Positions 10,533-32,000 of a stretch of DNA of 32,000 nucleotides are shown piece after piece. Below the pieces are notes generated by a model. It searched no databases. It had not been told where the DNA came from and was given only the letters and a program-made list of their open reading frames with translations. How positions within the stretch are numbered: the first letter of the stretch is position 1; every line of letters begins with the position of its first letter. This DNA comes from Deltaproteobacteria bacterium (GTDB lineage: Bacteria; Desulfobacterota; Syntrophorhabdia; Syntrophorhabdales; Syntrophorhabdaceae). Made by a program: the position numbers and the translations under genes. Location of the stretch: NCBI GenBank assembly GCA_022711595.1, contig JAKLET010000014.1, forward strand, positions 60,215 through 92,214, written 5' to 3'.

Positions 10533-10648
10533 GCTTGAACCGCTTGAATGCTTGAACGGCTTGAATGTTCAAAAGAACATTTTTAAAAGATGAATATTTT
10601 ATTGTTTCTGACGCTCAAGCGGCTCAAGCGGTTGAAACGGCTCAAGCT
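10533..10648. repeat. Inverted pair of short-period arrays (GCTTGAA x4 at 10533-10565; GCTCAAGCG-type 9-mers x4 at 10613-10648) around a 47-nt AT-rich loop
   Basis: GCTTGAA occurs at 10533, 10542, 10550 and 10559. The 9-mers have an exact 9-nt period at 10613, 10622, 10631 and 10640. On the minus-strand RNA, GCUUGAGCCG can pair with CGGUUCAAGC (9 Watson-Crick pairs and 1 G-U). The right array overlaps the radical SAM stop codon at 10642-10644. Confidence 0.8.
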
Positions 10649-12114: not shown

Positions 12115-12132
12115 GTTTTATTTGGCAAGGTT

Positions 12133-15492: not shown

Positions 15493-16643
15493 ATGCTTTT
15501 GCCCCTTTCCAGGACTATGGCCGCGTTGATCCCTCCAAAGCCGGAGTTGGAGGTGAGACACAGATCGCCGGCAAGAGGCGCCGTTTGCGCGCTCACAAGG
15601 CCTTCAGCGCCCTCTTCGGGGTCCTTGAACCCCGTTGTCGGAGGGACCATTCGCACAGAAAGGGCCTTTGCGGCCAGGGCTACCTCTATGCCCCCGGCCG
15701 CTCCCGTTGTATGTCCTATGCTTCCCTTCACGGAATAAACGGGAATGTCACGTCCGCCGAAGACACGTCTCAAGGCCTTAATTTCCATGAGATCGTTGTA
15801 TGTGGTTCCCGTACCATGGGCGCTTACGGCGAAAATGTCCTCCTGTTTCAGACCCGCACGGGCAAGCGCTTGCCCTATCGCCATGACAAGTCCTTCGCCG
15901 TTCTGGGCAGGGGAGGTTATGTGAAAGGCGTCGTTCGACGCGCCCCAGCCGCGGACAACGGCAATGCAGGACCGTGCGTCCCTTACAGCCCTTTCTTCAC
16001 TCATCATCAGCAGGGCGGCGGCCCCGTCCCCAAGAGTCAGCCCGCTCCTCGACCTGTCAAAAGGACGTGCGGGGAAGGCCGAGACAACTTTCAGGGCGCA
16101 GAAGCCGGAAAAGGTGAATTCCGTGACAACGTCGGCGCAGCAGACGATGACAGCTTCGGCCAAGCCCGAGGCGATCAGGGAAGCCCCCTGGGTGATGGCG
16201 ATGGTCGACGAGGCGCAGGAGGCGCTCACATTTGTTCCTGTGTCCTTGAGGCCCAGTTTCTGCGAAACCATCTCAGGCAGGCAGGAAAGGAGCACGTCCC
16301 CACCGCGCGCGGCCTCTTTCCGCCGGAGCCTCTCCAGGTTGTCGATCCCCATCTTCGTCGTTGCCGTGACAAGCACCGCGTCTGACGGTACCGGACCTAT
16401 CCCCTTGAAGAGGATCTCGACGAGTGAATGGATCAGCGACCTGTCACCCGTTGGCTTGAGACCTTCAACACAGGCAGCCAGACGGGAATAGTACCCTTGC
16501 GGGCAAAAGCGATCGATCTCCCTGATGCCCGTTGCCCCCTTCACCAGACCTTCCCAGGTGTCCCCGAGGTTTTGCCCGAGCGCTGTGACCGCGTTGGCGT
16601 CTACGATCCAGATCTTTTTTATTTCAGTTCCCCTGCTTTCCAT
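15489..16643 (-). CDS. Beta-ketoacyl-ACP synthase I/II
   Basis: 384 aa. The motifs VSASCASSTIAI (Cys), SAHGTGTTYND (His) and GSIGHTTGAAG (His) are present. Confidence 0.9.
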   Translation of the reverse strand: MESRGTEIKKIWIVDANAVTALGQNLGDTWEGLVKGATGIREIDRFCPQGYYSRLAACVEGLKPTGDRSLIHSLVEILFKGIGPVPSDAVLVTATTKMGIDNLERLRRKEAARGGDVLLSCLPEMVSQKLGLKDTGTNVSASCASSTIAITQGASLIASGLAEAVIVCCADVVTEFTFSGFCALKVVSAFPARPFDRSRSGLTLGDGAAALLMMSEERAVRDARSCIAVVRGWGASNDAFHITSPAQNGEGLVMAIGQALARAGLKQEDIFAVSAHGTGTTYNDLMEIKALRRVFGGRDIPVYSVKGSIGHTTGAAGGIEVALAAKALSVRMVPPTTGFKDPEEGAEGLVSAQTAPLAGDLCLTSNSGFGGINAAIVLERGKSI

Positions 16644-17080
16644 TTTTCACGAAATTCCCTGAAAAAGGGCGGCGGTACCAGCAGGAGGTCGTTGTCCTTG
16701 TTCAGGAGCACCTGGACGGTATAGCCCGTCGTTGCCACGATGTCCTCGCTGTCCTTTATGATGAACTCGTAATTGACCCTCGTCGCGTCGGACCAGTGCA
16801 GGATGGCCTCGATGGTGAAGTTTTCCATCAGTCTCAGCGGACGGTAATAATCGAGATGCATCTTTTTGATGGGTGCGACTATACCATTGTTATAGAAATC
16901 GAGATACCCGACACCGTACCTTTCGCCAAGGGCTACCCTGGCGTCCTCGAAATAACCGGGATAGCGGCCGTGCCAGACTATTCCGAGCGGGTCCGTCTCC
17001 TCGAACCTGACCCGTCTTGAAACCTTCGCCCTTAAGGGCTCGGGGTCCGTTGCATTCCTGTTGAAATATGATCTTTGCAT
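16619..17080 (-). CDS. 4HBT/YbgC-type hotdog acyl thioesterase
   Basis: 153 aa. The motif VRFEETDPLGIVWHGRYPGYFE contains the catalytic Asp context of the 4HBT class. Its 3' end overlaps the downstream KS start by 25 nt. Confidence 0.7.
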   Translation of the reverse strand: MQRSYFNRNATDPEPLRAKVSRRVRFEETDPLGIVWHGRYPGYFEDARVALGERYGVGYLDFYNNGIVAPIKKMHLDYYRPLRLMENFTIEAILHWSDATRVNYEFIIKDSEDIVATTGYTVQVLLNKDNDLLLVPPPFFREFREKWKAGELK

Positions 17081-17096
17081 GTTCTTTCAAACCCCT

Positions 17097-17480
17097 TCAG
17101 ATGGTTTTTACAAAAAAAGATGCCGCAAGTCCTCCCGCGGCGGTGATCCTGGCCTCAAAGGCGCCGGCGTTTCCCTGGCCGAGCTGTCTGCACTGGACAG
17201 ATATCTCCTGACCGGGATGTATCTCCATGCGGAATTTGGCCCTTTCCATGGACAAGAGATCATGGGAGCGTCCCTTCCATTCATCCAGGACAATCAGCGT
17301 CATCATCACCTGGGCAAAAGCGGGCAGGATCGGGTGTCCCGGAAAATGGCCGGAAAAGCCGATAAAGTCGGCAGGGAAAATGTATCGCCTCGAGACCTTC
17401 GTGGGCTCCGTTTCCACGATGGGCCCGATGGCGCATTTTATGATCTCTTCCTTGAGTCTGTTCATTGCCATTGAGATCAT
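17097..17480 (-). CDS. FabZ/FabA-like hotdog 3-hydroxyacyl-ACP dehydratase
   Basis: 127 aa from ATG 17480, which has an ATGA overlap with the MMPL stop. The motif FSGHFPGHPILPAFAQV is present. The 146-aa ORF is an upstream extension. Confidence 0.75.
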   Translation of the reverse strand: MISMAMNRLKEEIIKCAIGPIVETEPTKVSRRYIFPADFIGFSGHFPGHPILPAFAQVMMTLIVLDEWKGRSHDLLSMERAKFRMEIHPGQEISVQCRQLGQGNAGAFEARITAAGGLAASFFVKTI

Positions 17481-19855
17481 GCCTTTTTTCTGTAAAGCGC
17501 CGGGACCACCAGCAGGGCCGAGGGGATCACGCCGCACAGGCCCAGAAGGACCGTTATCCCGATGGAACTTAAGGCCGGGTGATGCGCCAGGGCCAGTGCG
17601 CCGATGCCCACAAAACTTGTCAGGCCGCCGAGGAGGATGCCCAGATTGGCGGTATGCTCGTAGCCTTCGGTGATGTTGCAGACCATGAATATCCCGAGAT
17701 CGACACCGAGCCCGATGACGAGTATGGTGGCAACGATGTTGAAGATATTGAACTGAACGCCCAGGGCTCCCATGGTGCCGAGCATAAAAACAAGCCCCGT
17801 CGCAACAGGCACGAGCGCGAGGAGGATCTTTTGCAGGTTGCGAAAGAGGAGGCTTACCGACACGATGATGACAAGCAGTGCGAAGACGATATAGCGGGAG
17901 AAATTGCCGACGAGGGCCTTGCCGATGATCTCCCTGAAGCGGCCCTGCGACACGAGGCGCACCCCCTGTGGTCCGTTCCCGTCATTGCTGAAGAGATCGA
18001 CGTTGGCTTTCGTGTCGGGGATGAGCGTCAGGGTCTGGACACTGCCGTTGCCTTTCACGATCATTGAATCCATGAGGTCCGCGAAACCGGTCTCCTTCAT
18101 ACCGCTTTCCGTGACGGGGCCGGGCTGCTTTGCGAGCATGTCAAAGAACGGCAGGAAGGCGCCCGCCGAGAAACCGAGCTTTCCGCCCTCTTCCGACAGG
18201 AGCTTTTGCGCCAGCCGCCCGTTGCCACCGGACCAGAAATCCGCCCATCGCTTTGCGTTAGCCCGCTGCGTCGCCGATGAAGGGAATAATGGCGCCAGGC
18301 TGATGATCTGCGCCGCAGGGAGCTTTTCCGAAAGATAGGCAAAGAGGGAGTCATTGGCAAAAAGCGATGCCTCCAGGTCCTTACCCTCGGCAAAAAGGAT
18401 CGCGCTGTCCCTGAAGTTGCCCCACGTTTTCGACATGTGCCGCTCGGATCTTTGGAGCTCTTCGGGTACGAAGTTCATGGCCTTGAGATCGCCGTTGAAG
18501 TCGAGCCGCCCCGCCTGCCACAGGCACACTGCCATGACTGCGAGCCAGCAAAGGAGCACTCCCTTGCGCGGCAGGCTGAAGGTGCGCGCCGGATGCGCGC
18601 CGACGTAACGCTTCCTGCCGGGGAGCGAATGGACGAGGTGAGGAAGCACGACAAGGGAGAAAACAAGGGACACGGCGACCCCGATCATCGAAAAGACCGC
18701 AAGCTGACGCTGTCCAGGCAGCGTGGAGAGGAGCATGACGCCGAATGTGGCGATGGTGGTGAGCCCGCCGAACATCACGGGATGGGCGACCTCCCTTGTT
18801 ACCGGGGCGGGATCGCGCTCTTTGCTGCACAGGGCGAAATAGACAAGTATGGGGTAATCATCGGATATCCCCAGGAGCACGGCGCCGAAAGCCATTGTCA
18901 CTGCCGAGACACTGTCATAGATAAGAAGCGTTCCCGCCGTTGCAAGGCACAGCACCGAAGAGGGGACGAGAAAAACGAGTATGCCCTTCCAACTCCTTAA
19001 AAAAGCCATTATCAAAAGGAAGATGGCAACGGACGCGCAGGTCAGGATTACATAGAGGTCTTTCTTGATCGTCCCAGCGTTGGCCGCGGTGTATGCATGG
19101 CCGCTCACGAAGGACGCTTCGATCTTGGGGGGGACCACCTTTTTTATGAGGTCTTTAAGGTGTGTCACCAGTTCATCGGAGCCTTTTGAATCGGTTATCT
19201 TCACCGGCGTTTTTGCTATCACGAGAGCGCTGCTCCCGTCGGCGCTTATGAAATGGTTGTTGTACAGGGCCATCCCGGGGATGACGTTGAGATGACGGAG
19301 TTTTTCAAGGACTCCGCTGCGCATATCAAGGGGATCGGCCTGCAGAAGGGGCTTCATGAACCATCCCTCGGGTAATGTCAACTGTTTATACACATTTTGC
19401 AGACGGGAGCGGACCTCTTCCGGTGTGAGTGCCTTTTGCGCCGCCGCCATGTCCCTGGCGGTGAATGTGTTCGGGAGGGTGTTCATGAGCCATTGCGGGA
19501 GCCGCTCGTCAGACGCAATGGCCGGCCCGGCCACGGCGCGGGTGAAATAAGGCGGTGTCATGGCACGGCTCAACATATCCGCCGCGTCGGTGAGCTCTTT
19601 CTTTCCTGTCCCCGGATCTCCCTTGAGGCTGACCAGGACCTTGTCAGAAAAGGGCGCCTTCTGAAGCAGCGCGAAGTCTTTCGCGGCCTCGCTGCGGTCA
19701 TCGGGCAAAAGAGGCTTTATGTCCTCGTTCATCCTGATGTTCCTCAGGATGAAGGCGGCAAGGATGATGACGGCGAAGGTGGCGCAGTAGAGCAGAGGCC
19801 TTCGGCGTGCAAGATGACTGTAAAGTGATGAAAAAACAGAGAAAAAGGAATTCAT
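17477..19855 (-). CDS. MMPL/RND-superfamily lipid exporter
   Basis: 792 aa from ATG 19855, which lies 2 nt after the LolA-like stop. There are two blocks of multiple hydrophobic helices separated by large soluble loops. The N-terminus is MNSFFSVFSSLYSHLARRRPLLYCATFAVIILAAF. The 871-aa ORF extension is Arg-rich read-through of the upstream gene. Confidence 0.8.
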   Translation of the reverse strand: MNSFFSVFSSLYSHLARRRPLLYCATFAVIILAAFILRNIRMNEDIKPLLPDDRSEAAKDFALLQKAPFSDKVLVSLKGDPGTGKKELTDAADMLSRAMTPPYFTRAVAGPAIASDERLPQWLMNTLPNTFTARDMAAAQKALTPEEVRSRLQNVYKQLTLPEGWFMKPLLQADPLDMRSGVLEKLRHLNVIPGMALYNNHFISADGSSALVIAKTPVKITDSKGSDELVTHLKDLIKKVVPPKIEASFVSGHAYTAANAGTIKKDLYVILTCASVAIFLLIMAFLRSWKGILVFLVPSSVLCLATAGTLLIYDSVSAVTMAFGAVLLGISDDYPILVYFALCSKERDPAPVTREVAHPVMFGGLTTIATFGVMLLSTLPGQRQLAVFSMIGVAVSLVFSLVVLPHLVHSLPGRKRYVGAHPARTFSLPRKGVLLCWLAVMAVCLWQAGRLDFNGDLKAMNFVPEELQRSERHMSKTWGNFRDSAILFAEGKDLEASLFANDSLFAYLSEKLPAAQIISLAPLFPSSATQRANAKRWADFWSGGNGRLAQKLLSEEGGKLGFSAGAFLPFFDMLAKQPGPVTESGMKETGFADLMDSMIVKGNGSVQTLTLIPDTKANVDLFSNDGNGPQGVRLVSQGRFREIIGKALVGNFSRYIVFALLVIIVSVSLLFRNLQKILLALVPVATGLVFMLGTMGALGVQFNIFNIVATILVIGLGVDLGIFMVCNITEGYEHTANLGILLGGLTSFVGIGALALAHHPALSSIGITVLLGLCGVIPSALLVVPALYRKKA

Positions 19856-19857
19856 GA

Positions 19858-20511
19858 TCAGTCGAACAGGCCCTTTTGCAGTTGACTGTTCATGATCATG
19901 CCGGAAAAGACGATCCTTGTGGAATCGCCGCTTTTTTCCGCGATGTCGACGTTGTGGACATAGTTCGTCCCGGCCTCGAAGGATATGCGGATGTGGTCGA
20001 CGTATCGCCTCTCTTTTGAGTCGTTCGGGACGAGTTTCAGCGCGATGGGTTCGTCTTTGAGGACGGTGACGTTGTAACGCTGCTCGATCCATTTGAGGTC
20101 TGCCGAGGACCAGGCAAATATCTGGTCCACGATGAGCCTGATGACGGGGTTCTGCCTGGCATCAAAGGCATCCGGTACGCCTTCTTTGCCCTTCCATTGT
20201 TTCGCTGTGACGCCGTTTACCAGGAAACCGGAAGGTTCAGGGCTTATAAGTTCCCAGCGGAGCTTGTCGGGTTTCTCGCAGTAAAAACGGCCCGTGGAGA
20301 CGACAGGTTCCTTGAGCATGGAAAGCCGCCTTTCCTGGCGGAATGAACCTGAAATGGTCTTTATATCGGAAACGGTTTTCGATATCCGCTCAAAGATCAG
20401 GGCCTTACGCCCACTGCCCGGCCTGCTCCCGGCACCGGCCTCTTCACAGAGGACTGCGGGAGGGCCGGCAAGCATACAACACAGCAGCAACATGAGAATA
20501 GCTTTTTTCAT
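19858..20511 (-). CDS. LolA-like outer-membrane lipoprotein/lipid carrier protein
   Basis: 217 aa from ATG 20511, which has a TAATG overlap with the upstream stop. A signal peptide (MKKAILMLLLCCMLAGPPAVLC) is present. The LolA-type motif is GSFRQERRLSMLKEPVVSTGRFYCEKPDKLRWEL. Confidence 0.7.
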   Translation of the reverse strand: MKKAILMLLLCCMLAGPPAVLCEEAGAGSRPGSGRKALIFERISKTVSDIKTISGSFRQERRLSMLKEPVVSTGRFYCEKPDKLRWELISPEPSGFLVNGVTAKQWKGKEGVPDAFDARQNPVIRLIVDQIFAWSSADLKWIEQRYNVTVLKDEPIALKLVPNDSKERRYVDHIRISFEAGTNYVHNVDIAEKSGDSTRIVFSGMIMNSQLQKGLFD

Positions 20512-20954
20512 TATGAGATCCACACTGTTATATTTCCTTCGGCGAGCGCCTTGCCGCCCTTCATGACAATCCCGTCGGCGATGTTGAAATCGCCTACCTC
20601 TGCTGTGGTCGTCACTTTGATCCTGAGGAGGTCTCCGGCTGAAGCCTCACCTTTTATCTCTATTGATTTGGCGGCAACGAGAAAGCCCTTTTTTATATCT
20701 TTCCCGCCGAGCAGATCGGAGTATCCCCTCACTGCCGCATAGGACTGCGCTATCAACTCTATAAAAGTGATCCGGTCAAGCACCCCGTCCATGCCGACAA
20801 CAAGGTCATCAGGTTTTATGACCGTTTCCACGACACCGCTGTTGCCGCCAAATTCCACAAGGCGGTCAACGAGGCACATGGGCCGGCGATGGGGCAGGAG
20901 CATTTCAACCGATACCGGCAGTACAAGGTCTTCTTTTGTCAGCTTGCGGTTCAT
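20511..20954 (-). CDS. Hotdog-fold dehydratase (ApeI/FabZ-like)
   Basis: 147 aa. The N-terminal motif LLPHRRPMCLVDRLVE is typical of cluster-associated 3-hydroxyacyl-ACP dehydratases. Confidence 0.7.
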   Translation of the reverse strand: MNRKLTKEDLVLPVSVEMLLPHRRPMCLVDRLVEFGGNSGVVETVIKPDDLVVGMDGVLDRITFIELIAQSYAAVRGYSDLLGGKDIKKGFLVAAKSIEIKGEASAGDLLRIKVTTTAEVGDFNIADGIVMKGGKALAEGNITVWIS

Positions 20955-20967
20955 GACTGCCGGAGTG

Positions 20968-21738
20968 CTATTGCTGCGCCGGGCCCTCCTTCGTTCTGTC
21001 GAGATGTTTTTTTATCATGCCCCTTACATGCTTGCGCATGCTGATGTGCGCCGTGTTACCGTCTGAGGCGAAGTCACCTGGAAAGACAGGGTCAAGGGCG
21101 CTGAGGCAAACGGTGGCAGGCTTCATCCACCAGCGGCCGGGCGGCAGGAGTGTGTCGGTGCCGGTAATACAAAGCGGCAATACGGGGACGCCCGTTTCGA
21201 CGGCCAGCTTGAAAGGGCCTGTATAGAAGCGCTTGACCTGTCCGTCACCGCTGCGGTGACCTTCGGGGAAGAACAGTACGGCCCCTTTTCCGGAGAAGAG
21301 TTTGTTGCACTCTTTAAGGGTCCCTTCCCATCCGATGGCCTCCACGTCAAGATAGCCGGCGAGGCGCATGAACGGCCTGTACCAGAATAGTATTTTAAAA
21401 GGCCATGAGCGCACCGCGAAAGTGACGTCGTTAACAGGGAGCAGTGCCATGCAATAGGTGTCGAAAAAAGAGAAATGGTTGACGACGATGATACAGGGAA
21501 GACCGACACCACCCTTTTTCAGCCCCTCCCTTTTGAACCTTACGAAGGGGGTCATGACGATCATCCAGGCCCTGCCATAGACCCATACGAAGAAACGCAT
21601 CACCCTGCCGTTGTCCCACCGTGTGGCCAGCTTTCCCCCCGTGAAACACAGGGGGAACAGGACAATCCCCAGGACCGTCATGAATACAATGACGGGGTAC
21701 ATGACCAGGTTCATGAGGACAATGACGGGGAAAAGCAT
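20968..21738 (-). CDS. PlsC-family 1-acyl-sn-glycerol-3-phosphate/lysophospholipid acyltransferase
   Basis: 256 aa. N-terminal TM helices are followed by the HX4D motif VVNHFSFFDT and an FPEGHRSGDG block. Confidence 0.8.
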   Translation of the reverse strand: MLFPVIVLMNLVMYPVIVFMTVLGIVLFPLCFTGGKLATRWDNGRVMRFFVWVYGRAWMIVMTPFVRFKREGLKKGGVGLPCIIVVNHFSFFDTYCMALLPVNDVTFAVRSWPFKILFWYRPFMRLAGYLDVEAIGWEGTLKECNKLFSGKGAVLFFPEGHRSGDGQVKRFYTGPFKLAVETGVPVLPLCITGTDTLLPPGRWWMKPATVCLSALDPVFPGDFASDGNTAHISMRKHVRGMIKKHLDRTKEGPAQQ

Positions 21739-21744
21739 TATGGT

Positions 21745-21999
21745 CTACTGCATTTCATGTTTTTTGCCTATAACGAAATTGTGTATATCACCCAGTGTGC
21801 GGATGGCCCGGATGGTTTCTTCCTCGCTCATCTTGAAGTTGAAGGCTTTTTCGAGCACGATCACCATGTCAACCCTGTCAAGGCTGTCAAGGCCGAGGTC
21901 GTCCTTCAGGACGGCACCGGGGATCATATCATCGATGTTGAGTTCAAATTCGTTGGCGAGCGTGTTATCAATGAGCTCGATAATTTCCTGATCAGTCAT
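21745..21999 (-). CDS. Acyl carrier protein
   Basis: 84 aa. It carries the motif DLGLDSLDRVDMVIVLE. Confidence 0.9.
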   Translation of the reverse strand: MTDQEIIELIDNTLANEFELNIDDMIPGAVLKDDLGLDSLDRVDMVIVLEKAFNFKMSEEETIRAIRTLGDIHNFVIGKKHEMQ

Positions 22000-23227
22000 G
22001 CTCGTACCTCCTTATGACAATAGATGTGTTTACGCCACCCAGGGCAAAGTTGTTCTTCATAACGGCCCCTATGTCCAGCCTTTCAACTTTTCGGACATGC
22101 CTGATGCCCGCGCATGACGGGTCTATGTTCTCCATATTGAGCGTGGGGATCACCGATCCGCTGCGGATCATTGCGACGGAGGCGATCATTTCGAGGGCGC
22201 CGCAGGCGGCCATTGTGTGGCCCAGGTGTCCTTTCAGGCTGCTGACCGGTACGCTGCTGCCGAAGACCCTTCCGATCGCCTCGGCTTCCGCGTTGTCGCC
22301 CTGTATGGTGCCTGTCGCGTGGGCGTTCACGTGACCGATGTCCCCGGCGGTCATGCCGGCGTCATCCAGCGCCTGTTTCATACAGGCCTCCATGGAATCG
22401 CTGTTGGGATCGGCGATGTTCGATGTATCGCAGCGCGTGGCAAAACCGGCTATCTCGGCAAGGATGGGAGCGCCCCGTCTTTTTGCCGAATCCAGCGATT
22501 CCAGGAGCAGTATGCCGCTGCCCTCGGAGCAGACAACGCCATCCCTGTCGCGATCGAATGGCCGGGGTGTACGGCCGGGGGTGTCGTTGTAAGCGATGGA
22601 GGCCGCGCTCATGATGTCGAAGGTGGCCGGGCTCAAAGGATGGAACTCGTCCGCGCCCCCGCAGAGCATCATGTCCTGCTTGCCGAAGGCGATCATCTCG
22701 AAGCCGTACCCGATCGCTTGGCAGGACGTGGAACATGCCGAGGAAGGGGCCAGGATCCGGCCGTTGATGCCGAGAGTCTGGGCCACGTTCGAGGCACAGG
22801 AGTGGTTCATGATCTGGAAGAAGGTGGTGGCCCTCATATTTTCGATGCTATGGCCGGAGAGATAGCCGGAGAAGAATTCCTCCGTTACAATAGGGCTTCC
22901 GACAGTGGAACCTATGATGATGCCCATCCTCCCGGCGGTGAAGTGCTCCGCGGGGGGATCGCTTTGGCCCAGAGCTTCCTTGCATGCCAGCGTGGCGTAT
23001 ACGGACATCATCGACATGGACCTCCTGTGTTTCCGGAGTATCTCTTTCGGGTCGATATCGGGGACAAGCGCCGCCACCCTGGTCCTGAGCCCGCCGACGG
23101 CCGCGAGCTCGGGGACATTGACCACAGCGCTCTTCATATTGAAAAGGGAATCAACGAGCGTATTCACACCCCGCCCGAAGGGCGATATGGAACCCATACC
23201 GGTTATTACTACCCTTGCGGCCTGCAT
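21992..23227 (-). CDS. Beta-ketoacyl-ACP synthase I/II
   Basis: 411 aa. The motifs PSSACSTSCQAIG (Cys), NAHATGTIQGD (His) and GHLGHTMAACG (His) are present. Confidence 0.9.
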   Translation of the reverse strand: MQAARVVITGMGSISPFGRGVNTLVDSLFNMKSAVVNVPELAAVGGLRTRVAALVPDIDPKEILRKHRRSMSMMSVYATLACKEALGQSDPPAEHFTAGRMGIIIGSTVGSPIVTEEFFSGYLSGHSIENMRATTFFQIMNHSCASNVAQTLGINGRILAPSSACSTSCQAIGYGFEMIAFGKQDMMLCGGADEFHPLSPATFDIMSAASIAYNDTPGRTPRPFDRDRDGVVCSEGSGILLLESLDSAKRRGAPILAEIAGFATRCDTSNIADPNSDSMEACMKQALDDAGMTAGDIGHVNAHATGTIQGDNAEAEAIGRVFGSSVPVSSLKGHLGHTMAACGALEMIASVAMIRSGSVIPTLNMENIDPSCAGIRHVRKVERLDIGAVMKNNFALGGVNTSIVIRRYEHD

Positions 23228-24702
23228 TCCTTCAGTTCCTCCCTGAGATGCTCGCGCCCGAAGATGTTCTCACAAACGATGAATCCTGACATGACGGCGC
23301 CCATTATACCGGGTGCAGTTACGGCCTGGCCGGCAAGGTAGAGCCCTTTCAACCTGGTGACGGGCATCGGGTTGTACTGCCCCGTCCTGTGCTTTACCCC
23401 GTATATGCTGCCGTAGGGACTGCCCGTGTAGTCCCTTAGTGTGAGCGGCGTCGCACATTCCACAGCGGTGATCGTGCCGGCTATTTCAGGACATGATGCC
23501 TCTATATGGCTGCAGATCTTTTCGGTCATCTCATTTTTAAAGATCTTGTAATCCACGGGGCGTCTTCCTGTTACGGAGTCCGCCCAGCGCTGCGTTTTTG
23601 CGTTCGACATGGGACAGATGGCAATGAACCCATGTTTTCCGGACCCATTGCTACCGCGTGCGGCGGTTATGTAAAGGGGTCTTTCTTCCACTGGCAGGTC
23701 ATTATGGAAGAAAGAGAAATCGGGCCGCGGGAATATGAAAAGATTGGATCCCTGAAGGCGCTCGACAGGTCTTGTGCATTCAGCGAAGAGTATGCAGGCG
23801 GAAGATGTGTCTTCAAGATCCTGAAGGCGTTTCACGTATGCCGGCCGCAGGAGCTTATCGGGAACCATCTCAAGCAGCATGTGCGGATGGACTGTGGAGA
23901 CGCAGCCGCCGCATTCAAGTGTGGTGCCGTCATTGAGTGCGACACCGTTGACGGCCCCGCCCGGGGCGGCAAGGATATTTTTCGCCCCCTGTCCGCAATA
24001 TATACTGACCCCCGCTTTTTCAAGCGCGTCTTCAAAGGCCTTCGCGAGACTTTGCCCTCCGCCCTTGATGCCGCTTGCCGATTCATAATATGAACCAGCT
24101 ATGCATGCATGATGCGCGAAAAGGGTCTCTCCCGGCGACACTCCGTAGAGGAAGCAGTGCATGGAAAGGACGCATTTGAGGATGCTGTTGCCCGTCAGCC
24201 TGCCCAGGAATTCTTCAAGGCTCGGTCCGTGCACGCTCGAAAACGCCTCAGGCCCGGCCTGCCCGTCAAGGTTCACATAAGGGAGCGAGCAGTATATCTT
24301 CCGGACGGTGCCCAGGTAGTCGTCGACGGCCTCTTTATCGCCGGGGAAGGTGTTGTGAAAGGCCCCTGCGAGACTTTCATACCCGTAAGGCTGATGGAAC
24401 TCGAATGAGGGGTCGAGGCAGCACATGATATCGAAGCCCTCTTTCTTGAAGGGATAGGTCTCGATACCGTCGGAGAGCCCGAGGTACCTGAAGAAGATGT
24501 CCAGCGGTTCCCCCACCCCGAGGGCGCCGGTATAATGGAAACCTGTATCAAAAAAAAGTCCCCTTCTCGTGAAACCCCTGACGGTCGGGGCCACACGTTT
24601 CGAACGCTCCACAAGGGCCGTCCGGCAGCCGTGTTTTGCCAGTATCAGGGCCGTTGTAATGCCCGATACGCCGCCGCCTATGACCACGTAATCGTATTTC
24701 AT
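23209..24702 (-). CDS. FAD-dependent oxidoreductase, phytoene desaturase (CrtI)-like family, second copy
   Basis: 497 aa. The N-terminal motif is YDYVVIGGGVSGITTALILAKHGCRTALVE. It has an ATGA-type 4-nt overlap with the upstream KS and a 19-nt overlap with the downstream KS. Confidence 0.7.
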   Translation of the reverse strand: MKYDYVVIGGGVSGITTALILAKHGCRTALVERSKRVAPTVRGFTRRGLFFDTGFHYTGALGVGEPLDIFFRYLGLSDGIETYPFKKEGFDIMCCLDPSFEFHQPYGYESLAGAFHNTFPGDKEAVDDYLGTVRKIYCSLPYVNLDGQAGPEAFSSVHGPSLEEFLGRLTGNSILKCVLSMHCFLYGVSPGETLFAHHACIAGSYYESASGIKGGGQSLAKAFEDALEKAGVSIYCGQGAKNILAAPGGAVNGVALNDGTTLECGGCVSTVHPHMLLEMVPDKLLRPAYVKRLQDLEDTSSACILFAECTRPVERLQGSNLFIFPRPDFSFFHNDLPVEERPLYITAARGSNGSGKHGFIAICPMSNAKTQRWADSVTGRRPVDYKIFKNEMTEKICSHIEASCPEIAGTITAVECATPLTLRDYTGSPYGSIYGVKHRTGQYNPMPVTRLKGLYLAGQAVTAPGIMGAVMSGFIVCENIFGREHLREELKECRPQG

Positions 24703-25919
24703 TTATTGAAAGTGAGGACCAGACAGGAATTCGTGCCTCCGAACCCGGCGGCGTTGCACATAACCGCACGGGGAGGTCTTTCGACGGTTTCTTTCACGAT
24801 ATTGAGCCTTTCAGAATGCTCATCGGGCTCTTTAAAATTAATATTGGGCGCAATGAAGCCCTGCCGGGCCATTATGGCAGCGTAGACCACCTGTGATGCG
24901 CCGGACATCCAGAGCTCGTGGCCCGTCATGGACTTGAGCGATGAGACATATGGTGTTTTTGGCCCGAAGACCTTTGAGATGGCCTGTGCTTCCGATGCGT
25001 CGCCAAGGGGTGTCGATGTGGCGTGGGCACAGATATAGTCGATATCGCCCGGTTCCATGCCGGCGATCTTCAAGGCCTTCTCCATGGCACTCCGGAGACC
25101 TTCCAGGCTCGGCACCGACAGGTGCAGACCATCGGAGGAAAAGCCGTAAGAACGGACCTCTCCAAGGATCGCCGCGCCCCTTTTCCGCGCCGTTTCCAGG
25201 CCCTCCAGCACCAGGGCTGCGGCGCCACCGCCCGGGACGAGGCCGTCACGGTTCTTGTCAAAGGGACGGCTGGCCGCCCCCGGATTATCGAAGTTGGTTG
25301 AAAAAGCGCCGATGGCGTCGAAACTGCACATGGATTCCCAGTTGACCTCCTGTGCACCGCCGCATATAACCCTCTCCTGCCTTCCCAGGGCGATAAGGTC
25401 GGCCGCCTGTCCCACCGCGTGCCCGCCGCTTGAACAGGCGGAGCTGATGGTCCAGCAGGCACCCCTGGTTTTCAGGAGGGTATTGAGGTTCATGGTGACC
25501 GTTGAAGTCATTGAACGGAAAACGAAACCGCTCCCTATGGAATGTGACCCGCCGTGCTCCCTGAGGAGGTCCACCTGCTCAACGGCGGCTATGCAGCTTG
25601 AATCGCATCCGAAAATGAGCCCCGTTTCCTCGTTCTGTATGTCCTCGGGGGCAAGGCCCGACATCCCGAGCGCCTCCATTGCCGCCGCATAGGCCTGAAC
25701 GGCAAAGTCGGGCATGGTCTTGCGCTGTTTTTTCGACAGGACCTTTTCCGTACTGAAACCCTCGATCGCCCCTGTCAGCGGGCTGCGGAAACCGAGTTCG
25801 GCACGTTTTGTGTCGTATATGATGCCGGACCTTCCCAGGCGGAGCGACTCCCCCACGGTCTGCGTGTCCGTGCCCAGGCAGGATACGATGCCAATACCGG
25901 TGATAACGACTCTGTTCAT
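24699..25919 (-). CDS. Beta-ketoacyl-ACP synthase, FabB-like
   Basis: 406 aa. The motifs ISSACSSGGHAVG (Cys) and CAHATSTPLGD (His, FabB-type STP) are present. The second His lies in a divergent context, SMTGHELWMSG. AAGGA lies upstream of the ATG. Confidence 0.85.
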   Translation of the reverse strand: MNRVVITGIGIVSCLGTDTQTVGESLRLGRSGIIYDTKRAELGFRSPLTGAIEGFSTEKVLSKKQRKTMPDFAVQAYAAAMEALGMSGLAPEDIQNEETGLIFGCDSSCIAAVEQVDLLREHGGSHSIGSGFVFRSMTSTVTMNLNTLLKTRGACWTISSACSSGGHAVGQAADLIALGRQERVICGGAQEVNWESMCSFDAIGAFSTNFDNPGAASRPFDKNRDGLVPGGGAAALVLEGLETARKRGAAILGEVRSYGFSSDGLHLSVPSLEGLRSAMEKALKIAGMEPGDIDYICAHATSTPLGDASEAQAISKVFGPKTPYVSSLKSMTGHELWMSGASQVVYAAIMARQGFIAPNINFKEPDEHSERLNIVKETVERPPRAVMCNAAGFGGTNSCLVLTFNK

Positions 25920-25995: not shown

Positions 25996-26892
25996 TTATA
26001 TTGAAGCGCTGTAAAGACACGGCTCGTGTTCATTTTCTGATGGCCCTGCGAAGCTTCCGTAAGCCTCCTTGAGGGGGCCGAACCTGAAACGGCTTGCCAG
26101 CTCGGCAAGATAACGGCGGTACCTGCCGAAGTACATCCCATAGAGCGTGGCGGCAAGGGAGTGACATTTCCAGATGTTCCTGTTCACGCCCTCGGGGCTT
26201 GCCTCGTAGGGGTGGCAGAAATAATTGAAGGGCAAGCCCTTTTTATTGAGGCTTTTAAAATACCCTATCTGCAAATGTATGGGTATATAGGCGCAGAAGA
26301 GGCCACCGTTGAAGGGTATGGCGTTCCCGAAGAACACGAAAGATGTGACCGGTATGACTGTCAGCAGTTCCTTGTAAATGAAGGGCGTCATGTCTGTCGG
26401 TGAGCGCCCGAGGTATTTGAGCAGGCCCGGCTGCGCCGTGTTGTCAATTCTGTAGCCTGCATCTATCAGTTCATCGTATGCCCAGGGGGTGCGCGCCGTG
26501 ATGCCCCAGCTTGGAGAACGGTATGTGCAGACCTCTTTCGAGGTGATGTCCTCAAGCTTTTTTTTACTCATGGTTATGTCGTTGCGAAAATCCTTGCGCT
26601 GGAGGCGCTCCGCGATGATATGCCGGTACCCGTGGGAACCCACCTCATGGTTCGCGGCGGCTATGGCGCCCACAAGCCCGGGGAAATGCTCCGCCACATA
26701 TCCGGGTATGAACATGGTGGCCTTGAGGCCAAGGTCGTCAAGGAGCCCGAGGAGGGTGTATGTCTCCTTCTCGACGAGGTATTCCGACAGGTGACTGGTC
26801 CCGTTCTTCATGTCCAGGCTGTAGGCAAGGTCGTCGATATCGAAGCAGAGCGCGTTCGTGATACCCGATGGGACCTGATTCTTCAATGTCAT
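25996..26892 (-). CDS. Polysaccharide deacetylase (CE4/NodB-homology) family protein
   Basis: 298 aa from ATG 26892; the longer ORF overlaps the FabG-like gene. NodB-type motifs are CFDIDD (Asp-Asp), GSHGYRH (His-x3-His) and YRSPSWG (Arg-x-Pro). Confidence 0.65.
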   Translation of the reverse strand: MTLKNQVPSGITNALCFDIDDLAYSLDMKNGTSHLSEYLVEKETYTLLGLLDDLGLKATMFIPGYVAEHFPGLVGAIAAANHEVGSHGYRHIIAERLQRKDFRNDITMSKKKLEDITSKEVCTYRSPSWGITARTPWAYDELIDAGYRIDNTAQPGLLKYLGRSPTDMTPFIYKELLTVIPVTSFVFFGNAIPFNGGLFCAYIPIHLQIGYFKSLNKKGLPFNYFCHPYEASPEGVNRNIWKCHSLAATLYGMYFGRYRRYLAELASRFRFGPLKEAYGSFAGPSENEHEPCLYSASI

Positions 26893-26914: not shown

Positions 26915-27643
26915 CTACATGTACGTGCCGCCGTTGACGGCGATGATCTGGCCGGTGATGTAGGCGGCCTTGTCAGAAACGAGAAAACTGACGACATCGG
27001 CGACATCTGCGGGTTTCCCGAGACGTCCGAGGGGGATCATGGGAAGGATCCTGTCCTTCGGCAGGTCATGTGTCATATCCGTCTCTATGAAGCCTGGAGA
27101 GACGGCGTTCACCAGGATGTTCCTCTTTGCGACCTCGGCGGCGAGCGCCTTGGTGGCGCCGATGAGGCCAGCCTTTGCCGCGGAGTAATTGGTTTGACCG
27201 GGCATGCCGCTTTGCCCCGAGGTGGAAACTATGTTCACGATCCGCCCCTGGCGCTTGCGCAGCATATTGACGAGCACCAGTCTGGTGACGAAGAAAAACC
27301 CGTCAAGGGCAACGGAAAGGACGCCTTTCCATTCCCGCTCGTTCATCATGGCCATGATCGTGTCCTTTGCGTACCCCGCGTTGTTTACAACAGCGTAAGG
27401 CGTGTCGTTTTCGAGAAGCGGGGTAAGGGCGCTCTTCACAGCCTCGCCGTCTGCAACGTCGAAGGGGAGCAGAAGGCACGATGTCCCCTCTTTTTCGACC
27501 TCTGCGGCCACTCTGGAGGCGGACTCGTGGTCGCTGCGGTAATTGAGCCATATATCGAAGCCGTCACGTGCGAGAGCGGCGGCGATCGCAGCCCCGATCC
27601 CTTTGCTTCCCCCGGTTATCAATGCTATCCTTCGTTTTTCCAT
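26915..27643 (-). CDS. SDR-family 3-oxoacyl-ACP reductase (FabG-like)
   Basis: 242 aa. The motifs are ALITGGSKGIGAAIA (TGxxxGxG), NNAG and the catalytic YSAAKAG (YxxxK). Confidence 0.9.
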   Translation of the reverse strand: MEKRRIALITGGSKGIGAAIAAALARDGFDIWLNYRSDHESASRVAAEVEKEGTSCLLLPFDVADGEAVKSALTPLLENDTPYAVVNNAGYAKDTIMAMMNEREWKGVLSVALDGFFFVTRLVLVNMLRKRQGRIVNIVSTSGQSGMPGQTNYSAAKAGLIGATKALAAEVAKRNILVNAVSPGFIETDMTHDLPKDRILPMIPLGRLGKPADVADVVSFLVSDKAAYITGQIIAVNGGTYM

Positions 27644-28047: not shown

Positions 28048-29346
28048 ATGAAGATCCTCCTTGTCAATCCTCCCAATTGCGGGCGTAGCATCCCCGAGGA
28101 ACAATACGGCATAGACTCGCTGAAACAGATAATGCGGGCCGAGCCCCTCTCGCTTGAGGCCCTTGCGGGAAACCTTGACGAACATGAGGTAAGGATCGTC
28201 GACCTGAAGGCGCAGCCGGACACATTCGGAGAGGCCCTTGCCGGTTTTGCTCCGGACATTGTGGGTATTACCGGTGTTACCTGTGAGGCGAACACCATGC
28301 TGAAACTCGCGTCAGAGGTAAAGCGGGAGAGTGAGGCCACGGTCGTCGTAGGCGGCGTCCATGCAAGCAATGATCCGTCCTTCTTTAACAGTGCTGATAT
28401 AGATTTCATTGTGGCAGGTCTTGGGAAGAAGAGCTTTCGGGTACTGGCAGAGGCGCTGCGGTCGGGAAAAGGAGCTGATGAAATTCCCGGGGTCACGAGG
28501 ACAAATCCCGGGGGGAGCATTTCCCTCGCGCGGAGGAAATGCTCCGGTGAAGACCTTGTAGACGACAAGCCGCCCCGCTATGACCTGGTGAACATGTACA
28601 GGGAACATTATTTCCTGGAATCGTTAAATTTACAGTTCGGTCTTGTTTCCGTCGCCTTCGGTTGCCCTTACCGCTGTTCTTTCTGCTCTATTCATCATAT
28701 CACGGGGGGAACCTATCTGACTCACAGCACGGCTGCGGTTCTGCGGGACATCAGGATATTTGCGGACCTGCCGGCGGTGATCCGCCTTGTCGATGCCAAC
28801 ACCTTCGGAGATGCCGGACATGCCCGCTGCCTTGCCGGTGAGATCATAAAGGCAGGCATAAAGAAACAGTTCGTAGCAGACGTGCGTTCCGACACGGTGG
28901 TGCGCCACCCGGACCTCTTCCGGGAATGGAAGGAGGCGGGACTGCGCTCTGTCATCATCGGTTTTGAAGAGGTCGACGACACCAGGCTATCGGAGATCAA
29001 CAAGGTGAACACGGTGGCCGTGAATACCGAGGCCATAGAGATACTTCACGATATAGGCATCACCATCATAGGCGACTTCATTGTTTCACCCGACTACGAT
29101 GACCGGCAGTTCCAATCATTGAGGAACTACCTGGGCGAACACCCCGTCGATCTGCCCATGCTCTCCATACTCACACCGCTGCCCGGAACACCCCTTTACG
29201 AGTCCATGAAAGAGAGGATTGCCATCCATGACCTTGATTTCTATACACTCACCAACGCGGTAGTTCCTACAAACATACCAGAAAAGGCCTTCTACGAGAA
29301 CTATGCGGACCTCATGAGGTCAAGCCATGCAGGGGCAAAATTATAG
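28048..29346 (+). CDS. B12-binding-domain radical SAM enzyme (class B type), copy 4
   Basis: 432 aa. The N-terminus is MKILLVNPP...EPLSLEALAGNLDEHEVRIVDLK. The CxxxCxxC motif is CPYRCSFC. Confidence 0.85.
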   Translation: MKILLVNPPNCGRSIPEEQYGIDSLKQIMRAEPLSLEALAGNLDEHEVRIVDLKAQPDTFGEALAGFAPDIVGITGVTCEANTMLKLASEVKRESEATVVVGGVHASNDPSFFNSADIDFIVAGLGKKSFRVLAEALRSGKGADEIPGVTRTNPGGSISLARRKCSGEDLVDDKPPRYDLVNMYREHYFLESLNLQFGLVSVAFGCPYRCSFCSIHHITGGTYLTHSTAAVLRDIRIFADLPAVIRLVDANTFGDAGHARCLAGEIIKAGIKKQFVADVRSDTVVRHPDLFREWKEAGLRSVIIGFEEVDDTRLSEINKVNTVAVNTEAIEILHDIGITIIGDFIVSPDYDDRQFQSLRNYLGEHPVDLPMLSILTPLPGTPLYESMKERIAIHDLDFYTLTNAVVPTNIPEKAFYENYADLMRSSHAGAKL

Positions 29347-29362
29347 CGAGGTGCAATCTCTT

Positions 29363-30535
29363 ATGGATGTTTATATAACGGATGTTTCTTCTTTTCTTCC
29401 CAATGGTCCCGTGTCGAACGACGATATGGAAAAGGTTCTGGGGGTGGTGGAGCATATACCCACCAGGATCAAAAAGATCGTTCTGAAAAGCAACGATATC
29501 CATTCAAGGTATTATGCTATCGACCCCGAAACGGGAAGACAGACACATACCAACGCTCAGCTCGCCGCCGAGGCGGTGCGCCGCCTTAAGCCTTACGATG
29601 GTTTTTCTCCAGACGACATCGAATGCCTTTGCTGCGGGACGTCCACGCCGGACCAGATCATGCCGGGCCACGGATTGATGGTTCACGGTGAACTGGCAAG
29701 CGGCCCCTGCGAGGTCGTGAGCACATCGAGCATCTGCATATCGGGGATGACGGCATTGAAATACGCTTATATGAACGTGGCGCTTGGCCTTTCGAAGAAC
29801 GCCGTGGCAACGGGTTCGGATCTGGCGTCGGCATCCCTGAAGGCAAGGTTCTATGAGGCGGTCGGCGAGAAGAGAAAGGGCGGGAAGTTCAAGGAAGACG
29901 GAGAAGTGCCGCTCTTCGATACGGTCTTCCTCAGGTGGATGCTTTCCGACGGTGCGGGCGCGGTTTTCATGACGGGCAGCCCCACAGGCGCCGGCGGTGC
30001 CTTGAAAGTTGAATGGATCGAGAATATATCCTTCGCGGGGGAATTCGAAACCTGCATGTACTGCGGGGCGAAAAAGGAGGGGGACGGCCGGGTGACGGGC
30101 TGGCGCGGCTATCCTTCCCCGGAGATGGCCGCACGCGACGGGGCCTTTCTCATCAGACAGGATGTGAAGCTGCTGAACCGGGACATCATGAGGGTCTCTG
30201 TCGAAAAGACGCTGCCCTTTGTCATTGAAAGGCGCGGTCTTTCACCTGCCGGGGTCGATTGGCTGCTGCCGCATTATTCGTCGGGTTATTTCCGGCAGGA
30301 ATACTATGACCACCTGAAGGATTTCGGGTTCGAGATACCCTACGAGAAATGGTTCACAAACTTGAATGACAAGGGGAACACCGGATCGGCCTCAATGTAC
30401 ATAATCCTTGAAGAACTATTCCATTCGAACAGGATAAAGAAAGGCGACAGGATACTCTGCTATATTCCCGAGAGCGGAAGGTTCTCCGTCTGTTACGTCA
30501 TGCTGACAGTGGTGCGGGTCCCATCTGTTTCCTGA
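29363..30535 (+). CDS. KAS III-like (FabH-family) condensing enzyme, long form
   Basis: 390 aa from ATG 29363. An alternative ATG at 29327 would overlap the radical SAM gene by 20 nt. The N-terminus is FabH-like (VYITDVSSFLPNGPVSND). Cys lies in STSSICISGMTAL, His in LLPHYSSGYF and Asn in KGNTGSASMYI. Confidence 0.7.
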   Translation: MDVYITDVSSFLPNGPVSNDDMEKVLGVVEHIPTRIKKIVLKSNDIHSRYYAIDPETGRQTHTNAQLAAEAVRRLKPYDGFSPDDIECLCCGTSTPDQIMPGHGLMVHGELASGPCEVVSTSSICISGMTALKYAYMNVALGLSKNAVATGSDLASASLKARFYEAVGEKRKGGKFKEDGEVPLFDTVFLRWMLSDGAGAVFMTGSPTGAGGALKVEWIENISFAGEFETCMYCGAKKEGDGRVTGWRGYPSPEMAARDGAFLIRQDVKLLNRDIMRVSVEKTLPFVIERRGLSPAGVDWLLPHYSSGYFRQEYYDHLKDFGFEIPYEKWFTNLNDKGNTGSASMYIILEELFHSNRIKKGDRILCYIPESGRFSVCYVMLTVVRVPSVS

Positions 30536-30797
30536 CATAGCCTGCCAGTGTCTTTACGGTTCTGAAGATCACCCGGCTTGATTCCTCCAGGCTTATCCTC
30601 ACGTTGTATTTCTTCTCCACGGCCACGGCGATCTCCACGGCATCGAGCGAATCCAGTCCGAGGACGGAATCGGGGCCTATGAGCGGGTCATCGGGAGAGA
30701 AGTCGTCCTGCACGGGATCGGATATCCTGCATATTCCAACGATCATCTCCAGCAGTTCCTTTTCAAATTCCAGCCCAGGTTGTTCGAACAGTTTCAT
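30498..30797 (-). CDS. Acyl carrier protein (longer, N-terminally extended)
   Basis: 99 aa. It carries the motif VLGLDSLDAVEIAVAVE. GGTGGA lies 7 nt upstream of the ATG at 30797. Its 3' end overlaps the convergent KAS III-like gene by 38 nt. Confidence 0.8.
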   Translation of the reverse strand: MKLFEQPGLEFEKELLEMIVGICRISDPVQDDFSPDDPLIGPDSVLGLDSLDAVEIAVAVEKKYNVRISLEESSRVIFRTVKTLAGYVRKQMGPAPLSA

Positions 30798-30895
30798 TAG
30801 CCATCCACCTTATTTCGTCAATTTTTTTCTTAAAAATCCTTTGCGGCATATGTGAACCACGCCGGGATCGTTTCCCGTGAACGGTACCGGGAAAA

Positions 30896-31909
30896 TCATC
30901 GGACGGTTTCAGAGAGGTCACGGAAAAGTCCATGTTCCTTCTCGGCGCAATCGAGGAGGATCTCGCTCAAAAGGTTGAAATTGTCTTTCTCCGACGCCCT
31001 GTCCTTGCATATCCTGGCGCTCGAGGCCGCAAACTCCCTCCACCTGTCGCCGATGACCGTCATCCTCTTTGAGAGATCGAGCAGGCGGTCATCCTTCAGT
31101 ATGGCCGCGGCCTCCTGGAGAAAGGCGGCATACATGAAGCGAAAGCCTCCGCCCCCCGTCCCGAACTCTTCCTGCAGCCTTATGACATTGCCGAGATAGA
31201 GCAGCGTCTTGCGGTTCCCGTGCTTTTCGGGCCAGTTCTTCAGGCTGTTCGCAAAGAATCGGATCCCCCTGGCGCCCATGATCGGGACCGGCAGTTTCAG
31301 CATCACGAAACATGCCTCCTTGATACCCTTGACGACCGCCGCCGCGATGTCGATGTGCCCTGGGGCCCCCATGAAACGAAACATCTTTCCTTTGGGTGAG
31401 AATGTGCCTTTAGAGAAACGGGCCCTTATAAGATCTTCCCTGGTGCAGGTGACGGGTCCATCCATGACAGGATCGCTGATGATGTAGCCATTCCCGCTCA
31501 TGCCATAGGCGATGATGAAGTGGGCGTCGAAATGGATCCTGAAGGCAGGAGGGAAGTAGGGGAGCCAGTAAACGGCCGTCTGGAGGCAGACGGGGATGCC
31601 CCTGCGGAGCATGTCGTCGAGGGCCTCCATGCCCTTTTCGGGGTTTTTGAACTTGACACACTTCACCCCGACCCCGAGGCGCCCGGCAGCGTTCTTCATA
31701 AGCCTTCCCGGAAAGGTGCGGTATGTGATGAGCGGGGAGCCGCTCATCTTGATAAAGGGGAAATAACCGAAGAACACACCTGAACCGATCCCGAAGACAA
31801 GCGCCTCCGAGGCTTTGACGCCGTAGTGGAAAAGGAGGCTGGATGTGGAGCCGCTCTCGCAGTGTGCGGAGATGCGGTGGGTGAAGTCTGTCTTTGCCGT
31901 GTCAGTCAT
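30896..31909 (-). CDS. BtrH-like (BtrH_N/DUF4872-type) putative ACP-dependent acyl/aminoacyl transferase or peptidase
   Basis: 337 aa from ATG 31909. The N-terminal Cys motif RISAHCESGSTSSLLFHYG and the overall length recall the butirosin BtrH family. The assignment is from memory of the family, not from a search. Confidence 0.45.
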   Translation of the reverse strand: MTDTAKTDFTHRISAHCESGSTSSLLFHYGVKASEALVFGIGSGVFFGYFPFIKMSGSPLITYRTFPGRLMKNAAGRLGVGVKCVKFKNPEKGMEALDDMLRRGIPVCLQTAVYWLPYFPPAFRIHFDAHFIIAYGMSGNGYIISDPVMDGPVTCTREDLIRARFSKGTFSPKGKMFRFMGAPGHIDIAAAVVKGIKEACFVMLKLPVPIMGARGIRFFANSLKNWPEKHGNRKTLLYLGNVIRLQEEFGTGGGGFRFMYAAFLQEAAAILKDDRLLDLSKRMTVIGDRWREFAASSARICKDRASEKDNFNLLSEILLDCAEKEHGLFRDLSETVR

Positions 31910-32000
31910 TTTCCGGACCTTTCTCAAGCTGCTCCACCGATATGCCGAAGACCTTTGCGTAGCGCTCCAGCAGGGAATGAGAGAGGCGCCGGAACACCCC
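31902..32000 (-). CDS. 3' end of an unidentified upstream gene, truncated by the window edge
   Basis: An open frame reads ...GVFRRLSHSLLERYAKVFGISVEQLEKGPEND followed by a stop. The stop overlaps the BtrH-like ATG by 8 nt, which suggests the same operon. The function is not assignable. Confidence 0.3.
   Translation of the reverse strand, partial: GVFRRLSHSLLERYAKVFGISVEQLEKGPEND

Follow-up and report, generated by a model that had tools for sequence, protein, structure and literature searches.

A predicted CE4 de-N-acetylase as an accessory gene of an aryl-polyene/'ladderane-type' lipid cluster in Syntrophorhabdaceae

We analysed a 32,000-nucleotide stretch of Syntrophorhabdaceae DNA (the window) in which a CE4 deacetylase gene (25996-26892, minus strand) lies inside a large lipid gene cluster. 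Judged from its sequence this is a genuine gene with an intact, full active site and a predicted de-N-acetylase activity, and it is an accessory gene of the cluster, dispensable in most lineages, since 11 otherwise syntenic clusters are CE4-less. The first-pass annotation had read the cluster as Nod-like, i.e. glycosyl transfer, de-N-acetylation and then N-acylation with the tailored chain. The reading we favour, with a probability of about 0.5, is an optional de-N-acetylation of a GT2-installed HexNAc head group that would leave a free amine; it draws on sequence, a structural model and analogy with known enzymes. Clusters of this class, and deacetylases within them, were already known. New are the DUF3473-type enzyme in this place, its patchy occurrence and signs that unrelated CE4s have been recruited repeatedly.

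The CE4 gene, its active site and its fold class

The CE4 ORF codes for 298 aa from an ATG at 26892 (minus strand), 22 nt past the stop of a FabG-like ketoreductase gene (26915-27643, minus strand), which is the first gene of the minus-strand operon in the window and is also upstream of the CE4 in orthologous loci. At the other end, 76 nt separate the CE4 from the ATG of a FabB-like ketosynthase (KS; 24699-25919, minus strand), so its placement between these two genes had been described correctly. A longer frame of 336 aa from 27006 was rejected in favour of the 26892 start because it overlaps fabG and is unsupported by homologue lengths; the closest homologues have 298-300 aa and their alignment begins at the Met of 26892. 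PF01522 matches with E=1e-15 (58 bits against a cut-off of 23.1) and DUF3473 with E=1e-8, also over its cut-off. The DIDD, HGYRH and RSP motifs read earlier were recovered as FDIDD (17-21), HGYRH (87-91) and YRSPSW (124-129), along with D150 and HPYE (227-230).

Conservation was scored on 107 sequences, the query plus 106 homologues with identities of 42-97%. D18, D20, D21, H87, H91, P127, W129, D150 and H227 are unsubstituted (104-107 of the 107 sequences), and position 125 is either R or K. This set includes all six catalytic or metal residues (D18, D20, H87, H91, D150, H227), among them the Asp-His-His metal triad D20/H87/H91, with D18 as the predicted base and H227, assigned by position, as the predicted catalytic acid. 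In a profile alignment FDIDD falls on the VDIDA motif of H. pylori HP0310 (HpPgdA), and the active site maps on D12/D14/H86/H90/W127 of that enzyme by alignment and on H247 by position. The HP0310 metal is bound by D14, H86 and H90, the water is held by D12 and H247, and W127 covers the site (PMC3084791). No N-terminal signal, anchor or hydrophobic stretch was found in the CE4 sequence, so the enzyme is probably cytoplasmic.

The AlphaFold model of the CE4 (pLDDT 89) is closest in fold to HpPgdA (HP0310, 3qbu; Z24.8, 233 residues, rmsd 2.6), 3rxz (Z24.0), 1z7a (Z22.1) and ArnD (Z20.5, rmsd 2.6, 212 aligned, 20% identity); canonical polysaccharide CE4s score Z 15-19 against it. HpPgdA, 3rxz and 1z7a have been assigned to subclass NodB1.2, which also includes PuuE allantoinase-like enzymes, and have been named as the closest relatives of ArnD (PMC10967932). 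HpPgdA has a closed site with no open polysaccharide groove and is inactive on GlcNAc and chitotriose (PMC3084791). Going by the profiles and the model, the enzyme is of the DUF3473/HpPgdA type (NodB1.2-type fold) and not a NodB. The earlier label 'NodB-type' is right for the general fold but not for the family, as the score with the NodB chitooligosaccharide deacetylase model (TIGR04243; cut-off 240) is 28 bits. Among NCBIfam models the top score is with that of XrtA-system deacetylases (TIGR03006; 148.5 bits against 276.2), an identity rejected on the score and on the context, which is a lipid cluster and not a PEP-CTERM/EPS locus. Membership of the ArnD family was also rejected, as no ArnD model matched at E 1e-5 and the likeness is one of fold only.

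Class of the gene cluster and its head-group genes

Beyond the FabB-like KS, which adjoins FabG directly in CE4-less clusters, the minus strand carries a phytoene-desaturase-like flavoprotein (23209-24702), a second KS with an ACP (21745-23227; KS 21992-23227, ACP 21745-21999), a PlsC-like acyltransferase in the ApeD position (20968-21738; a distant homologue of the E. coli ape acyltransferase, 28% over 129 aa), a block of ApeP-like dehydratase, LolA-like carrier, MMPL exporter, ApeI-like dehydratase and hotdog thioesterase (16619-20954), a KS with a truncated KS-like partner (14776-16643), three B12-binding radical SAM genes (10642-14747), a GT2-DUF2062 glycosyltransferase of the polyprenyl-P-sugar-synthase type (9313-10518), an LpxL-like acyltransferase (8394-9320), and an ACP, a KS and a KS-like chain-length-factor (CLF) partner (5790-8331). 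A divergent unit on the plus strand (28048-30535) holds the fourth B12 radical SAM gene and a StlD/DarB-family ketosynthase (NF005293 over cut-off). An ACP and DarH are found on the minus strand at 30498-31927, the latter (BtrH/DarH, 30896-31927) being a BtrH-related putative acyltransferase that passes NF053550 with 425 bits against 300. All the glycosyltransferase, acyltransferase (LpxL-like, PlsC-like, BtrH-like) and ACP/KS genes that the first-pass annotation named are present in the window, which holds two phytoene-desaturase-like genes and four B12 radical SAM genes.

The aryl-polyene/flexirubin core as listed in the APEL preprint (KS, CLF-like, ACP, two dehydratases, KR, MMPL; bioRxiv 10.1101/2020.12.19.423268) is complete, the dehydratase matches being under the Pfam cut-offs, and both an ApeJ-like GT2/acyltransferase and an ApeD-like acyltransferase are in the cluster. 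The marks of the 'ladderane type' were found as well, namely a TIGR04072 (rSAM_ladder_B12) radical SAM gene (12133-13485, minus strand; 627 bits against 360), phytoene-desaturase-like genes and several KS paralogues. No Pfam match to an ammonia-lyase or a CoA-ligase (aryl starter) was obtained among the window's cluster genes. By gene content the cluster belongs to the known aryl-polyene/flexirubin/'ladderane-type' class and is not nod-like.

The window ends where contig C6 ends; a second DarH (71% identical) and an ABC-transporter-like pair stand at the end of contig C7 (L136:12578-15825), and because of this the dar module probably continues on C7. Two or three copies of DarH are present in G024, G025, G042 and G150. 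The ORF at 4682-5497 (plus strand) has no Pfam match and gave a class I SAM-methyltransferase fold in an Atlas structure search (TM about 0.73). Of the 17 cluster-bearing genomes of the family 11 have it, placed at one or other of two sites in the cluster, and it was found in no genome outside the family. As a partner of the CE4 it was rejected, having a methyltransferase fold and being present in 11 of the 22 CE4-positive genomes.

Flexirubin clusters of Bacteroidota (Chitinophaga pinensis flxA-Y and dar genes; PMC3992019) are alike in KS/CLF/ACP, LpxL-like, PlsC-like, LolA and MMPL genes and also share GT2-DUF2062, phytoene-desaturase-like, DarB and DarH genes and an in-cluster polysaccharide deacetylase. 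The window is set apart from them by its four B12 radical SAM genes and by the lack of an ammonia-lyase/CoA-ligase match among its cluster genes. The APEL clusters (Xenorhabdus doucetiae / E. coli CFT073 ape) share the ApeJ halves, the ApeD-like PlsC, ApeP/ApeI-like dehydratases, thioesterase, LolA and MMPL, but the window has ApeJ as two separate genes and a DUF2062 domain on its GT2, and the E. coli ape cluster has no CE4. With the 'ladderane-type' FASII clusters described in Kuenenia stuttgartiensis and Desulfotalea psychrophila the window has in common the TIGR04072 gene, phytoene-desaturase-like genes, many KS paralogues and a GT; the D. psychrophila cluster is without the deacetylase-like kuste3351 of Kuenenia (PMC2649909). 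The rhizobial Nod system (NodA/B/C, NodE/F) likewise brings a GT2, a CE4-fold enzyme, dedicated ACP/KS and acyltransferases together in one locus; however, the GT2 of the window is not a processive chitin-oligomer synthase, and the CE4 is of another fold subclass, below the NodB cut-off and dispensable.

Aligned with ApeJ, the GT2/acyltransferase of the E. coli CFT073 ape cluster, the GT domain covers residues 7-239 (34% over 239 aa), and the LpxL-like protein encoded next to it covers residues 271-550 (24% over 291 aa, E=3e-15). As these are successive halves of ApeJ, the two genes are read as a split ApeJ. The best model for the GT2 is polyprenyl-phospho-GalNAc synthase, below its cut-off. 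The NodC motif QxxRW was sought in it and is absent (NxGKG is present), and a NodC-type processive synthase was rejected on this ground. ApeJ has been proposed to install GalNAc and to O-acylate it with the polyene (bioRxiv 10.1101/2020.12.19.423268). The only solved full-length product of the class, APEL, has GalNAc on glycerol phosphate, with the polyene ester-linked at the sugar C6 (O6) and the N-acetyl retained (bioRxiv 10.1101/2020.12.19.423268), a structure that comes from a single preprint and belongs to a class in which the E. coli cluster is CE4-less. Since the GT2 and LpxL-like proteins correspond to a split ApeJ, for which GalNAc transfer has been proposed, the cluster product may plausibly bear a hexosamine head group, the sugar donor not being fixed by 34% identity to ApeJ. 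This much of the earlier head-group hypothesis is kept, and its amide-linked chain is not.

Distribution of the CE4 and of its candidate partners

In all 21 Desulfobacterota loci (at least 42% identity) cluster genes follow directly downstream of the CE4, and wherever the contig reaches far enough FabG lies no more than 3 kb upstream of it. The same 20 of 88 class genomes carry GT2 and MMPL orthologues, and all 17 with a CE4 orthologue are among them; no CE4 orthologue without the cluster was found in these 88. Mean identity is 68% for the CE4 against 66, 62 and 64% for PlsC, LolA and MMPL, and the CE4 is kept in place through rearrangements that deleted the downstream KS-to-PlsC block. By these comparisons the CE4 is, within its lineage, a true member of the cluster. 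In G046 it is frameshifted; since adjacent genes there also have frameshifts, this was not taken to mean that the gene is decaying.

Outside the family, only 6 of 35 GT2-positive genomes of the phylum carry a CE4 orthologue, all of one genus. In 11 syntenic clusters (G061 of the same family, G072, G076, G465, G265, G466, G435, G399, G263, G175 and G347) FabG abuts the KS with no CE4 between, and GT2, LpxL and PlsC are retained where read. Such an absence had been named in advance as telling against the Nod-like reading. The expected conservation of CE4 and GT2 with the cluster core is borne out in one direction, as in the class the CE4 is always accompanied by GT2 and MMPL, but not in the other. 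When ten genomes with CE4-less clusters were searched with PF01522, G072 and G076 alone had a CE4 close to the cluster. In the GT2 tree the CE4-bearing clusters form mostly one clade, which includes the CE4-less G061 (the placement of G019 is not resolved). On this account the synteny of the orthologues counts as about one gain, and the tree is consistent with one gain and a loss. CE4 relatives in other phyla, at 45% (Chloroflexaceae, L024:4888-8415) and 40% identity (Pseudomonadota, L025:9890-11567), lie in glycan-type loci, which suggests that the gene came from such loci. These nearest non-cluster relatives adjoin GT2/FemAB-GNAT genes (L024) or a formyltransferase-like gene (L025), and relatives of 29-33% identity are found in EPS loci.

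Some clusters also carry insertions. The interval from the third radical SAM gene to the GT2 holds two extra genes in G072 (L058:6340-8366), one for a GT1-family glycosyltransferase and one for an alpha/beta-hydrolase, and a WD40 beta-propeller gene in G061 (L056:13739-14854). G265 (L099) has two ORFs between the ApeP-like and PlsC-like genes that look by eye like an aromatic ammonia-lyase and a CoA ligase, the two starter functions without a match among the window's cluster genes, and G333 (L107) has extra ORFs ahead of the PlsC-like gene.

The three acyltransferases proposed as partners (LpxL-like, PlsC-like and BtrH-like) do not follow the CE4, and all fail by their distribution across genomes. 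DarH is present in 20 of 22 CE4-positive and 16 of 32 CE4-negative cluster-bearing genomes, counts for which no statistic is claimed because kin genomes are not independent. It was not found in G019, G113, G072, G076 and G116, where a CE4 is in or beside the cluster or an orthologue is carried. Genus g52 keeps the CE4 and the GT domain, with LpxL missing or a remnant; this is a single event, and the remaining LpxL/PlsC paralogues, only 21-32% identical, might compensate. The CE4 follows the GT2 and not the acyltransferases. None of the window's cluster genes matched a GNAT, FemAB or formyltransferase. NodA (PF02474) had no match in the 100% complete genome (a search run without a positive control genome), the sole match in the genome to a C45-family N-acyltransferase is on another contig, and a DarH search in plasmids returned only distant BtrH-domain proteins. 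As to the g52 clusters themselves (L115-L118, L121: G449, G318, G406), they lost the KS-desaturase-KS-ACP-PlsC block and LpxL, and several also lost the DUF2062 half of the GT2. In G318 a divergent ape-like operon faces the cluster, and elsewhere in G318, as in G180, there is a second copy of the GT2.

Other CE4s stand in or beside clusters of this class. Flexirubin-type clusters on Persicobacter and Aureispira plasmids have a canonical membrane-anchored CE4 at the flxP position. It was these FlxP sequences, not that of C. pinensis, that we compared: FlxP differs from our CE4 in being canonical (TFDD, RPP, LLHD) with an N-terminal hydrophobic anchor, and orthology was rejected (BLAST E=0.48 to Aureispira FlxP, and no N-terminal hydrophobic stretch in ours). 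G072 and G076 have a third, signal-bearing CE4 type two genes before fabG, and G116 a FlxP-like gene (35% identity) just beyond the cluster end on the opposite strand, all three known as neighbours of the cluster only and not as co-transcribed. The chance of two such neighbours is P about 0.002-0.01, a rough estimate with a window size chosen post hoc. The Kuenenia cluster has the deacetylase-like kuste3351 (PMC2649909). Both flxP (PMC3992019) and kuste3351 (PMC2649909) are published in-cluster deacetylases with no assigned role, and our literature search found no experimental study of flxP. Taken together, the comparisons suggest that unrelated CE4s were repeatedly recruited to this cluster class.

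Function of the CE4 and its meaning

We infer the sugar, the substrate, the order of the steps and the free-amine product as follows. The cluster would make an aryl-polyene-lipid-like glycophospholipid, for which the KS/ACP sets would build the acyl chains, the PlsC-like enzyme would acylate glycerol phosphate, the GT2 would add an N-acetylhexosamine onto the phosphate and the LpxL-like enzyme would O-acylate the sugar. The CE4, as a cytoplasmic, metal-dependent enzyme, would then remove the N-acetyl from the single lipid-linked sugar before MMPL/LolA export, and the head group would change from anionic to zwitterionic. In doing so it would act like ArnD (a deformylase) or NaxD (a deacetylase), after a polyprenyl-phosphate-type GT2. 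ArnC pairs with ArnD in this way, the GT2 step being followed by removal of an N-acyl group from a lipid-linked sugar. The ArnC/ArnD (Ara4N) and NaxD (Francisella, Acinetobacter) systems differ in having undecaprenyl phosphate as carrier and in passing the sugar to lipid A, and NaxD is of the YdjC family and ArnD 20% identical to our CE4, so that this is a working analogy and not a membership. NaxD is a precedent for deacetylating a lipid-linked sugar (PMC11279074). Head-group deacetylation, at even odds, is further supported by the invariant site, the closest folds including ArnD, the split ApeJ, the co-occurrence with GT2, genus g52 and the recurrent CE4s; against it stand the fold-level likeness to ArnD and the inactivity of HpPgdA on GlcNAc and chitotriose. 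The free-amine product is favoured because an optional step without a partner fits it.

The same closed, GlcNAc-inactive site of HpPgdA, and the PuuE allantoinase-like members of NodB1.2, would also suit a small-molecule amidohydrolase or esterase whose substrate is a pathway intermediate other than a sugar (such as a precursor with an N-acyl or O-acetyl group, or lineage-specific methylated tailoring products), and the methyltransferase-fold gene at 4682-5497 occurs only in CE4-positive genomes (11 of them). However, that gene was not found in the other 11 of 22, the comparable place in Bacteroidota clusters is taken by an open-groove canonical CE4 (FlxP), and what the two CE4 types have in common is de-N-acetylation of sugars; we regard this function as unlikely. 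Distinctly unlikely is a co-transcribed passenger from an XrtA/PEP-CTERM-type exopolysaccharide locus, deacetylating another cell-surface glycan unrelated to the lipid. The closest family (TIGR03006), the EPS-locus relatives, the dispensability and the gain of about once speak for it, but the gene stays through the rearrangements, is as conserved as PlsC, LolA and MMPL, is never found in the class without the cluster and has no N-terminal signal or anchor, and other CE4s lie beside such clusters more often than the rough chance estimate allows.

Very doubtful, in our judgement, is the Nod- or LpxC-LpxD-like scheme, whereby the CE4 frees the amine and DarH or the LpxL-like enzyme then amide-links a tailored chain, ACP-dependent. 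BtrH of butirosin synthesis is an ACP-to-amino-sugar N-acyltransferase. DarH is BtrH-related, passes its NCBIfam cut-off and is in 20 of the 22 CE4-positive genomes, and the neighbours of the L024 and L025 relatives indicate that a deacetylate-then-reacylate logic exists in the wider CE4 subfamily; these two points keep the scheme alive. Yet DarH is also in half of the cluster-bearing genomes without the CE4 orthologue and was not found in the five genomes above, LpxL and PlsC are retained where the CE4 is absent and their orthologues lost in one CE4-positive genus, the acyl domain of ApeJ is proposed to O-acylate and the APEL polyene is O-linked, and neither a NodC-like GT2 nor a GNAT, FemAB or formyltransferase is among the window's cluster genes. 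It is a long shot that in Syntrophorhabdaceae-type clusters a radical-SAM-tailored or dialkylresorcinol-related chain is amide-linked by DarH or the LpxL-like enzyme after the CE4; if true, the product would be an N-acyl-hexosamine glycophospholipid, a kind of lipid of which aryl-polyene and ladderane-type clusters have so far given no example.

Returning to head-group de-N-acetylation, its value is moderate, as it concerns one tailoring step and is predicted from sequence and fold. flxP has been listed since 2014 as a deacetylase without an assigned role (PMC3992019). Should three or more unrelated CE4 types have been recruited to this one cluster class, many such lipids would probably bear a free-amine hexosamine head and not GalNAc. 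A 42-Da product difference would then be expected between clusters with and without the CE4 gene, and flexirubin, like the aryl polyenes, may belong to a larger glycolipid.
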